Origin: an uncultured Clostridia bacterium
GTDB taxonomy: Bacteria; Bacillota; Clostridia; UMGS1883
Assembly: GCA_947626145.1 (NCBI GenBank)
Contig: CANQRB010000004.1
Location: forward strand, 29,250 to 93,249
Reading direction: 5' to 3'
Length of the DNA stretch: 64,000 nt
The translations under genes and the position numbers were made by a program. Below the pieces are notes generated by a model that saw only the letters and a list, made by a program, of their open reading frames with translations, had not been told where the DNA came from and did no database searches. Positions 53,154 through 56,059 of the stretch are shown in pieces (the stretch's first letter is position 1; the number at the start of each line of letters is the position of its first letter).

Positions 53154-53423
53154 TTAACCCTTATTTTCTCCGTGTACATCCTCAAACGGTTTGGGGCAGT
53201 CAGGGTCAAGGTCACAACAGAACAGAAGAAATTCCGAAGAACTGGGTGAGTTTTCTTTTATAAACTCTATCATTTTTTGTGCCGTGCCAAGCCTTTTTGC
53301 GTCTATGCACGCACCTATTTCAAGGCCCTCATAACATCTCGGTATTGTCCTGACCCATTTTAACAGCTCCTGAAATTCTTCCCGCTCAAGCAGCGGGACT
53401 TTTTTCGTTTCTTTATTTTTCAT
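53154..53423 (-). CDS. Small hypothetical protein, paralog B (89 aa, start MKNKETKKVPLLERE at 53423)
   Basis: About 70% identical to paralog A; its ATG overlaps the stop of A (ATGAAAAATAA). Confidence 0.45.
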   Translation of the reverse strand: MKNKETKKVPLLEREEFQELLKWVRTIPRCYEGLEIGACIDAKRLGTAQKMIEFIKENSPSSSEFLLFCCDLDPDCPKPFEDVHGENKG

Positions 53424-53676
53424 TTTGTATATCCTCGAACGGTTTGGGGCGTTTGGGGTCAAGGCCATAACAGAACAAAACGAGTTCTGAAGAGCTGGGG
53501 GAGTTTTCCTTGATGTAGTCAACGATTTCCTTCGTCTTGCCAAATTTTTTTGCTTCTATGCAAGTACCTATTTCAAGATCCACGTAACAGTCCGGTATCG
53601 TTCTGACCCACTTTAACAGCTCCTGAAATTCTTCCTGCTCAAGCAGCGGTATTTTTTTCGTTTCTTTATTTTTCAT
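53413..53676 (-). CDS. Small hypothetical protein, paralog A (87 aa)
   Basis: MKNKETKKIPLLEQEEFQELLKWVRTIPDCY...; sits 55 nt downstream of the S8 peptidase stop. Confidence 0.5.
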   Translation of the reverse strand: MKNKETKKIPLLEQEEFQELLKWVRTIPDCYVDLEIGTCIEAKKFGKTKEIVDYIKENSPSSSELVLFCYGLDPKRPKPFEDIQNEK

Positions 53677-55209: not shown

Positions 55210-55369
55210 AGCTTTATCCCCTGAAATCAACAATCAATAATATTACATTTTCTATTGTACAATAAAAAAGGAAATTTGTCAAATGAATTTTTTGTTATTT
55301 TTATTTTAAACTAATCCCAAATTAAAATCATAAATATGTGAGTTCATTATGGTAACAATGACAGATTAA

Positions 55370-55525
55370 AAAGGCTTCCCCTCGAGGGGAAGCTGTCAGC
55401 GACAGCTGACTGATGAGGTGTAGCCGCTGTGCGGCGTTAGCATAGCCGTAAACGTATAACGGATGCTTCGCATCCTACACCTCATCCGGCACTTCGTGCC
55501 ACCTTCCCCTCAAAGGGGAAGGCTT
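55370..55525. repeat. About 155-bp highly structured palindromic element (terminal hairpins gcttcccctcgaggggaagc and ccttcccctcaaaggggaagg; internal 12-bp long-range stem gatgaggtgtag/ctacacctcatc plus three small hairpins); MITE-like or a structured 3'UTR/ncRNA
   Basis: Perfect 20-bp palindrome at 55374-55393; 12-bp stem 55412-55423 with 55475-55486; hairpins ggatgcttcgcatcc and ggcacttcgtgcc; AT-rich flanks. Confidence 0.4.
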
Positions 55526-55708
55526 TATTATCTGCTATATTTAATACTACTTTCTAATTAAAATCATCAATTCACGGCAGTCTTTTTGGTCTCTTCCTTG
55601 TCTGACACGAAAAATCCTCGCCACTCGGTGTCTGCTTTTAATAGATTAGTATTAAATAAATAAGGGGACAGGCTTTCAGATCAAACCGAAAACCCGTCCC
55701 CGCTCCGC

Positions 55709-56059
55709 TCACCTTCCGCTCAGCCCGAAGCTGACGGATATGGCGTCGTTGACCTTTACCATCTGCAATTCATCCAAACGGCCTATCTTTTCACGAAGGC
55801 GCTTTTTATCTATGGTCCGTATCTGCTCCAGAAGGACGACGCTGTCCTTTTGGAGGCCGTACTGGGCCGCCTCTATCTCAATGTGCGTGGGGAGCTTGGC
55901 CTTGTTGATGCGGCTGGTTATGGCGGCGGCTATGACCGTGGGGCTGTACTTGTTGCCCACGTCGTTCTGCACCACCAGCACCGGCCTGACGCCGCCCTGC
56001 TCTGAACCCACCACCGGACTAAGATCCGCGTAAAAAATGTCGCCTCGCTTGACAATCAC
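55709..56059 (-). CDS. ndoA: MazF/PemK-family endoribonuclease toxin (EndoA-like)
   Basis: [33 protein letters not shown]...ITSR matches the MazF/EndoA pattern. Confidence 0.85.

Follow-up and report, generated by a model that had tools for sequence, protein, structure and literature searches.

On the evidence of sequence comparison, the GC-rich hairpin cluster found between a mazF gene and a subtilase gene of an uncultured Clostridia bacterium is most probably a non-coding palindromic DNA repeat, selfish and dispersed, which is carried as cargo by a 341-bp MITE of the IS630 type. The cluster (referred to below as the core) and the 341-bp insertion around it (the block) lie in a stretch of 64,000 nucleotides which was analyzed as a whole and is called the window; unless stated otherwise, positions are those of the window.

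The hairpin cluster and its polymorphic insertion

The core is a GC-rich island (0.54-0.56 GC) occupying 55370-55526, within a spacer of otherwise 0.18-0.39 GC. The spacer is bounded by the subtilase gene (53731-55209/55233, minus strand) and mazF (55709-56059, minus strand), and no ORF of 40 aa or more was found between 55234 and 55708. The island folds into five consecutive hairpins, A to E (Table 1), with a stability far beyond chance on both strands, whether as RNA or as DNA. The folding energy is -95 kcal/mol for the plus strand as RNA (z of -9.2 against shuffles) and -94.4 kcal/mol for the minus strand (z of -9.4), while DNA parameters give a z of -10.1, and no shuffled sequence was as stable in any of the three folds.

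The preliminary description, which had been made from the letters alone, listed a 155-bp multi-hairpin palindromic element in which two similar terminal hairpins bracket a 12-bp long-range stem and three short perfect hairpins. The element itself is confirmed at these coordinates with a folding z of about -9 to -10, and both terminal hairpins (A and E, at 55374-55393 and 55502-55522) are present, the pattern CTTCCCCT-N-AGGGGAAG occurring at only these 2 places in the 64 kb with 0 expected. The 12-bp stem is likewise present and is formed by GATGAGGTGTAG (55412-55423) and CTACACCTCATC (55475-55486). The short perfect hairpins exist, although their number is four (55395-55410, 55423-55435, 55461-55475, and 55488-55500), the second and third of these being the small hairpins held within the interior of stem C.

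A long-range stem joining hairpins A and E was predicted by both RNAfold and RNAalifold and was rejected in favor of the local hairpins on the basis of compensatory changes. Among 73 relatives, the local pairs (11-23 and 196-208) have 17 cells compensated and 1 broken, compared with 6 compensated and 12 broken for the long-range alternative. Compensatory changes to CTTCTCC/GGAGAAG arise independently in hairpin A and in hairpin E, and for this reason the local hairpins are preferred over the long stem.

Table 1. Features of the mazF-subtilase spacer in the window, in order of position.
Feature	Position	Strand	Remarks
Promoter-like site of the subtilase gene, TTGACA-17-TACAAT	55254..55282	-	
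Left direct repeat, TTAAA	55306..55310		Present once in the empty allele
Composite insertion, 341 bp, IS630-type MITE with cargo	55311..55651		Absent from conspecific and sister-species contigs
Left terminal inverted repeat, CTAATCCCAAATTAAAATC	55311..55329	+	Preceded by AA; other copies have TA
Palindromic core, 157 bp, hairpins A-E closed by AAAG/CTTT	55370..55526	+	Strand by polarity of the family model
Hairpin A, GCTTCCCCTCGAGGGGAAGC = GCTTCCCC-TCGA-GGGGAAGC	55374..55393		Local pairing backed by compensatory changes
Hairpin B, GTCAGC-GACA-GCTGAC	55395..55410		Stem covaries; 32 double changes at pair 33-71, 31 at pair 34-70
Stem C	55412..55486		Invariant GATGAGG/CCTCATC base, 12 bp long here, encloses variable interior
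Hairpin D, GGCAC-TTC-GTGCC	55488..55500		Pair 167-182 has 38 double changes; loop type C-TNC-G
Hairpin E, CCTTCCCCTCAAAGGGGAAGG = CCTTCCCC-TCAAA-GGGGAAGG	55502..55522		Followed by CTTTATTATC on the plus strand
MITE-like palindrome without core, 103 bp	55547..55649		TA brackets at 55545-55546 and 55650-55651
Right terminal inverted repeat, GCTTTTAATAGATTAG, plus TA	55634..55651	-	Repeat itself 55634-55649
Right direct repeat, TTAAA	55652..55656		
Intrinsic terminator of mazF, 16 pairs then TTATTTATTT	55664..55701	-	Kept in empty alleles

Alleles of the spacer were compared among ten contigs encoding an identical 116-aa MazF. Three to four of the ten match the window (98.9-100% identical), those which span the spacer having a 500-nt gap between mazF and the subtilase gene, and six to seven have a short gap of 154-163 nt. 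Contig L142 is 98.4-98.5% identical to the window in both flanks and is without exactly 55311-55651, its alignment to the window breaking at 55314/55652. The empty allele of this contig reads TTATTTTTATTTTAAATAAATAAGG and the filled allele of the window reads ...TTTTAAA/CTAATCCC (starting with CTAATC)...GATTAGTA/TTAAATAAATAAGG (also given as TTAAATAAAT). The sequence TTAAA stands once in the empty L142 and twice around the insertion, so that a target-site duplication is present with respect to the empty site. Contigs of a sister species (L135-L140, 85-92% identity) are also empty here, and the sister-species MAG CANRJP01, which is empty at its mazF locus (L135), carries the element at other loci (L103, L060, and L032). 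As judged from the contigs compared, the alignments show the whole 341-bp block to be an insertion polymorphism within the species. L103 was considered as an orthologous locus and rejected, since only the element and the left arm match the window.

The carrier of the core

The block is a composite, made up of the left end, a 45-nt arm and the core, followed by a 103-bp palindrome which is bracketed by TA and lacks a core. The size and ends of this palindrome resemble those of 100-116-bp MITEs, and its right end doubles as the right end of the whole insertion. It starts with a third end-like copy (CTACTTTCTAATTAAAATC at 55547), which pairs with 55634-55649 when the whole insertion is folded; the arms 55300-55316 and 55644-55660 are 88% complementary.

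The inverted ends of the block, CTAATCCCAAATTAAAA and TTTTAATAGATTAG-TA, match the ends of a 1135-bp insertion sequence (IS) of the IS630 family and of many metagenome MITEs of 100-116 bp. The same ends are found, each time bracketed by TA, at L103 and L060, which are independent loci in the sister-species MAG CANRJP01, where they occupy two further contigs, and which share the ends and the core with the window but have unrelated flanks; the element is thus present at multiple sites. The left-end sequence is found on L103, L060, the IS of L229, and many small MITEs. Scanning of metagenomes for this end gave many elements of 100-116 bp with the form TA-CTAATCTCAA...TTGAGATTAG-TA, along with some of 161-346 bp and two of about 1.13 kb, and the 155-bp core was found inside none of these end-matched metagenome elements. 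Eleven MITEs of 97-170 bp have the same ends and TA...TA brackets without a core; the brackets were recorded for the IS of L229 and 11 small MITEs, among which L103 is counted.

The IS of L229 (96-1231) measures 1135 bp between TA-CTAATCCCAATTTAAAAGC and GGATTAG-TA and contains an HTH ORF and a DDE_3 ORF. Its C-terminal ORF matches the NCBIfam model NF033545 (transpos_IS630) with 137.4 bits (cut-off 100) and Pfam DDE_3 with 1.4e-21. The two ORFs appear to be joined by a frameshift. An element on L233 (128-1258) has matching ends with the same spacing. Both L229 and L233 come from metagenome contigs and not from the source genome; within the 64-kb window no IS630 copy was found, and the block is the only copy of a CTAATC-ended element.

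Duplication of a TA dinucleotide at the ends is a property of the IS630 family. In the window, TA stands at the right end and AA at the left, and from the empty allele TTAAA or TTA would be predicted in place of a clean TA. The block may have arrived by recombination, or its AT-rich flank may have changed since. A 3-bp TWA duplication, as for an IS5-like carrier, fitted four copies and was rejected, since the small MITEs show only TA to be general.

Prokaryotic MITEs have been defined as non-coding elements of 50-800 bp without a transposase, with terminal inverted repeats of at least 10-15 bp and target-site duplications of 2-10 bp (PMC11602168). The 341-bp block agrees with this definition in its size, its lack of coding sequence, its terminal inverted repeats, and its target-site duplication relative to the empty site. 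It also occurs in several copies at unrelated sites and has a cognate IS of the IS630 family with the same ends. A MITE had been offered as one reading in the preliminary description, and it stands on the IS630-type inverted ends, the direct repeat, and the strains without the block; its boundaries required correction, being 55311-55651 (341 bp) and not those of the 155-bp cluster. The carrier is an ordinary MITE of the IS630 type, and the 155-bp core can be described as GC-rich cargo inside it. An IS630-family transposase supplied in trans and working on the outer inverted ends would have moved the block. Its landing place is AT-rich spacer DNA, with the mazF terminator on one side and the subtilase promoter on the other. 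The insertion point is ~25 nt upstream of the promoter-like site, and the gene downstream of this site is a Peptidase_S8.

Other cargoes and other carriers were also observed. L199 (1284-1633) is a 346-bp MITE with the same IS630-type ends and a different GC-rich hairpin cargo (with motifs such as TGAGCGAAGCG), so that members of this MITE family seem commonly to differ in their cargo. In L081 (three copies) and L067, the core lies between different AT-rich inverted arms, TAAATTATYGTTTACAAGA...TATTAAGCTAAACGATAATTTA, which are mostly bracketed by TA and look like a second, independent MITE-like carrier. Two lineages accordingly have the core centered in AT-rich inverted arms of differing sequence, of the CTAATC type here and of the TAAATTATYGTTTAC type in L081/L067. 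It is suggested that the core was repeatedly captured by, or inserted into, MITEs of the TA type.

Distribution, architecture and spread of the core

Comparison of the core with phage records by blastn identified matches of ~150 nt in unannotated faecal virome contigs, and similarity searches of plasmid and phage collections returned nothing beyond these contigs. The alignment of the virome matches contains invariant GACTGATGAGG and CCTCATCCGG, and these 21 exact bases, with a gap of 35-65 nt, were used as the search pattern for the family. The pattern is found in 11 IMG/VR contigs, and genomes representing species contain at least 117 matching stretches. Nearly all of these matches come from Oscillospiraceae and other gut or rumen Clostridia (e.g., Faecalibacterium, Anaerofilum, and Faecousia), and 114 complete two-half elements are present in the 1.02 Mb of fetched loci. 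Gemmiger formicilis has at least 13 pattern matches in one genome (MCC627), and ATCC 27749 also carries the core. A covariance model (R1), built from 73 non-redundant copies, detects copies without the exact pattern, such as three in one 4.9-kb Gemmiger locus.

Within the 64-kb window, R1 gives a single match (122.2 bits on the plus strand, 84.4 bits on the minus strand) and no second core was found. The preliminary description had proposed that a single copy in the genome, with neither a transcript nor an Rfam match, would mark the cluster as fortuitous; within the window there is indeed one copy and no Rfam match, but this no longer holds once related genomes are examined. No description of the repeat family was found in Rfam 15 or in the searchable literature, from which only general papers on MITEs and REPs surfaced. 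The core is a new family of dispersed palindromic repeats, which as a kind of element is already known.

Bona fide cores (60-96 bits with R1) are also located on contigs binned as Beijerinckia, Rhizobiales, Dehalococcoidales, and Brevefilum (L038, L089, L034, and L050), as a result of either horizontal spread beyond the Clostridia (Chloroflexota and Alphaproteobacteria bins) or mis-binning. Contigs labeled as viral (L006, L007, and L012-L015 from IMG/VR, as well as MT83xxxx records) have up to three cores each; two of their ORFs were tested and had no Pfam match, and these contigs are either phage or bacterial fragments.

The repeat has a length of about 145-160 bp in the family, and the model comprises about 146 positions and five hairpins. 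On the left, the consensus consists of AAAG, hairpin A (GCTTCCCC-loop-GGGGAAGC), TG, hairpin B, CT, and GATGAGG. A variable interior of 35-65 nt separates GATGAGG from CCTCATC, and the right side continues from CCTCATC with CG, hairpin D, CCA, hairpin E (CCTTCCCC-loop-GGGGAAGG), and CTTT. Each half has a CTTCCCC/GGGGAAG hairpin, TG, a hairpin with a GNA loop, and GATGAGG, the two halves mirroring each other. The sequences of hairpins A and E and the junction bases are more than 90% conserved, even though they lie outside the search pattern. The structure is paired in 93.9% of its cells, and 226 are doubly changed compared with 75 ± 9 in shuffles, a covariation signal which collapses when the pairing partners are slid.

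Except at a few polar positions, the right half repeats the left in reverse complement. In 112 of the 114 elements, one GAAG-C...CT-GATGAGG half is combined with one GAAG-G...CG-GATGAGG half. The loops are mirrored as well, with 60% of hairpin B loops being C-GNA-G and 56% of hairpin D loops being C-TNC-G, so that each half has the same loop when read outside-inwards on its own strand. G-T vs. A-C mismatches total 46:36, being 26:10 in hairpin A and, in mirror image, 11:22 in hairpin E. Selection on a single strand (as RNA) was considered from these mismatches and rejected, as the totals are similar and the asymmetries of A and E mirror each other. A direct duplication of a target hairpin to give A and E was also rejected, the loop of E often being the reverse complement of the loop of A. 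When orientation is judged against the polar outer frame, the stem C interior is clearly inverted in 23 pairs and has the same orientation in 54; the interiors of the window and L103 are inverted relative to those of L060 and L032 of one MAG. The junction bases are unpaired, and their strong conservation across genera could reflect function and not recognition by a mobilizing enzyme. The mirrored polarity, the flipping interior, and the repeated association with MITEs are the unusual points of the core.

Smaller modules are nested in, or combined with, some copies. A 60-nt GC-rich module, AGTCTACGCGCTAAGAGCCGCCTACGGCGGTTGCGCTCCGACACGCGCCTGCGGGCGCAG (L033, 4558-4617), interrupts hairpin E between CTTC and CCCC, or hairpin A at the mirrored position, and is also present in L008, L042, L057, L069, L109, L115, L116, and L133. 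It represents a nested, position-specific mini-insertion with no obvious duplication. Among loci of the MAG CAKUHB01 (L064, L101, L128, L131, and L053), a repeat of ~260 nt is located directly left of the core in four loci and once occurs without a core, and in several copies hairpin E has given way to another hairpin module, CCACCTGTCCCTACCCC...GGGACATTTCCCCCTGACAGGGGGAATCGGCC, resulting in mosaics of small repeats. Half-units are tandemly duplicated or rearranged in L095 (2125-2260) and L127 (5023-5271), for example as two left halves in succession.

Gemmiger, Faecalibacterium, and their relatives are dominant gut commensals of humans and animals, and the core is abundant in their genomes. 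Longest-ORF calls, which are crude, cross cores in L066 (1038-2771) and L104 (1373-3073) with spurious N-terminal extensions (...PSPLRGKVAEGRMRG...), and ORF calls through cores are a likely source of mis-annotation in these genomes. A defined model of the core would prevent copies from being mistaken for sRNAs or for N-terminal ORF extensions, and would explain contig breaks and strain-level indels while providing markers for strain typing. It would also flag where putative terminators or insulators have been dropped between genes. The core is of moderate interest for the genomics of mobile elements and of the gut microbiome.

At orthologous Gemmiger sites, a full core in one genome corresponds to a solo hairpin in the other, and at another orthologous site an unrelated spacer stands in place of the core. 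No target-site duplication of the naked core was detected at offsets of 0 to 7 and lengths of 3-8, nor was an autonomous long version with the core halves far apart found among the orphan halves of the 1.02 Mb of loci. The naked core, as seen in Gemmiger, would spread by a route at the DNA level which leaves no target duplication, and the candidate routes are a hairpin-recognizing enzyme or recombination and template switching at extruded hairpins.

It is conceivable, though rather unlikely, that the naked core is of the REP/BIME type, in which case its two inverted hairpin units would be recognized as single-stranded DNA by a RAYT or an IS200/IS605-like HUH tyrosine transposase whose gene would lie elsewhere in the genome. 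This reading concerns the spread of the core and is compatible with a MITE carrier at the present locus. It is consistent with the absence of a target duplication, with the occurrence of solo hairpins, and with the insertion of other small modules at one fixed position of the hairpin arm, between CTTC and CCCC. C-GNA-G triloops are found on the outward-to-inward strand of each half, and triloops of this type are unusually stable in DNA. Each element also pairs two unit types in inverted orientation, which resembles the REPs of alternating orientation that BIMEs are composed of (PMC2817692). However, transposases of any kind were not recurrent near the copies in 1 Mb of loci, and there was no orientation bias with gene direction, which served as a proxy for replication direction. 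The unit, at about 50 nt and two hairpins, is longer than classical REPs, and the conserved GTAG-like tetranucleotide is absent.

A bolder proposal, to which a still lower probability is assigned, is that the core is a distinct self-propagating palindromic module which travels in the form of a folded single strand, duplicates no target sequence, and inverts its interior via hairpin intermediates. Such a module would lodge repeatedly in the center of unrelated TA-duplicating MITEs (CTAATC-ended here, AATTATYGTTTAC-ended in L081/L067) and would be kept across genera, perhaps phyla, as a portable bidirectional terminator or insulator.

Transcript-based readings and comparison with known repeats

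The core was also considered as a gene for a multi-copy structured small RNA, with a promoter in the AT-rich left arm and an end at hairpin E and its U-run, and this reading is improbable. The very stable folding, the covarying stems, and the strong conservation of the junction nucleotides across genera speak for such a gene. On the plus strand, CTTTATTATC comes after hairpin E, and ~60 nt upstream of the core in L103, within the left arm of this sister copy, there is TGGTATAAT, an extended -10-like sequence. However, no Rfam 15 family was matched at gathering or permissive thresholds by the window, by 18 copy-bearing loci, or by the best family member, the scans returning only chance hairpin-type matches far below threshold. 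Gemmiger copies have nothing in common upstream of AAAG, and the repeat therefore carries no promoter there. Copies are distributed over the four orientation contexts of their neighboring genes with counts of 24, 23, 22, and 15, indicating no orientation bias. Neither strand is favored by the wobble pairs or the loop types, in which one half mirrors the other; close relatives have the interior in opposite orientations, and strains with identical neighbors differ in having or lacking the element. The independent ncRNA which had initially been suggested as an alternative is contradicted by the lack of an Rfam match, the copies in either orientation, the mirror-symmetric wobbles, and the inverted interiors, and the reading of the core as a DNA repeat is retained.

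Copies often lie close to genes, with a stop codon no more than 15 nt away or a start codon at a distance of 10-40 nt, and no recurrent protein family was found beside them in the 8-kb loci (1 Mb in total). A riboswitch or leader was considered for the several copies located 10-40 nt upstream of an RBS and ATG, and was rejected with the four contexts being about equal and no gene family recurring. A hammerhead ribozyme, to which the invariant CUGAUGA had pointed, was rejected because GAUGAGG pairs with CCUCAUC, no GAAA follows the stem, and no Rfam hammerhead match was obtained.

It is more doubtful still that the element provides the alr-mazE-mazF operon with a structured 3' UTR and a distal terminator. 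The preliminary description had proposed that hairpin A terminates the alr-ndoAI-ndoA transcript and leaves a long structured 3' UTR, and the T-run on which it relied is real. On the minus strand, hairpin A (55393-55374) is followed by CCTTTTTAAT in a terminator-like arrangement, a terminator scan flags this hairpin, and the element is downstream of mazF on the same strand. However, mazF has a strong intrinsic terminator of its own, with 16 pairs and TTATTTATTT, which starts 8 nt past the stop codon (55701-55664, minus strand). This terminator is conserved in strains and in the sister species where the whole 341-bp block is absent, and the same core adjoins unrelated genes at more than 100 other loci. 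Since the mazF terminator is retained in relatives which lack the cluster, the operon does not need the cluster, and neither the proposed termination at hairpin A nor the long 3' UTR was upheld. Transcription of mazEF probably does not reach the hairpin cluster; the operon ends at its own predicted terminator and the cluster is an insertion.

The pattern of an intrinsic terminator (a GC-rich hairpin and a T-run) is found on both strands of the core, with hairpin A on the minus strand and hairpin E on the plus strand. As a by-product of its structure, the core would give a predicted hairpin and T-run at the exit on either strand and would in this way be a weak-to-good bidirectional terminator, which here would supply a predicted second terminator behind mazF. 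Family-wide, the T-run behind the last hairpin has only about 3 T. With an A-run before and a T-run after, the ends of the core look like a bidirectional terminator, for which termination as a side effect is plausible.

Two adjacent paralogous small ORFs of 87 and 129 aa (53154-53676, minus strand) were observed downstream of the subtilase gene; they have in common the motif KNKETKK.PLLE.EEFQELLKWVRTIP, and no Pfam match was obtained for the 87-aa ORF.

A chance grouping of palindromes within AT-rich spacer DNA, which would fit a single copy within the 64-kb window, is refuted for practical purposes by a folding z of about -9 to -10 and by more than 100 homologous copies with covarying stems elsewhere.

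Among known systems, the carrier may be compared with RUP of Streptococcus pneumoniae, an IS630-derived MITE thought to be mobilized by IS630-Spn1. Like IS630-derived MITEs of this kind, the window MITE is small and non-coding with AT-rich inverted ends, is located in an intergenic spacer, and varies in presence among strains, and its family has TA-bracketed copies and a full-length IS with the same ends which encodes a DDE transposase. It differs from the RUP type in being a composite of 341 bp which carries a GC-rich palindromic repeat with a much wider distribution of its own, and in having AA and not TA as its left bracket, with TTAAA as the repeat relative to the empty allele.

With regard to the core, BIMEs are described as REPs in alternating orientations (PMC2817692). 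The core resembles the REP/BIME elements of Proteobacteria in being intergenic, hairpin-forming, and present in many copies per genome, in being composed of inverted units of two types without target duplication, and in being a hot spot for the insertion of small elements with possible roles as a terminator or at mRNA ends (PMC2817692). The core falls outside the definition of REPs as imperfect palindromes of 20-40 nt with a conserved 5' tetranucleotide and alternating orientation. Its units of ~50 nt have two hairpins and surround a variable interior of 35-65 nt, there is no GTAG-type motif, and no protein is recurrent beside the copies in the 8-kb loci (no RAYT being linked). In contrast to the elements of Proteobacteria, it is found in Clostridia and is conserved across genera.

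The Correia (Neisseria), ERIC (Enterobacteria), BOX (pneumococcus), and bcr1 (Bacillus cereus) elements are imperfect intergenic palindromes of 100-160 bp, which are co-transcribed with their neighbors and can act as terminators or processing sites. The core is likewise an imperfect palindrome of such size, intergenic and dispersed. It has no sequence similarity to these elements, the naked core is without a TA or TTTAT duplication, and its five-hairpin layout, its fixed left and right half types, and its interior in both orientations set it apart.

The inverted terminal repeats of parvoviruses exist as flip/flop isomers, and by analogy only, the core is similar to them in having a stem around small palindromes which takes two orientations relative to the outer frame. 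Unlike these repeats, the core is a chromosomal interspersed repeat and not the end of a replicon; hairpin-primed replication is without support, and the inversion of the interior is explained equally well by recombination or template switching between the stem arms of 7-17 bp. The core would work most like REP/BIME, ERIC, Correia, or BOX elements.
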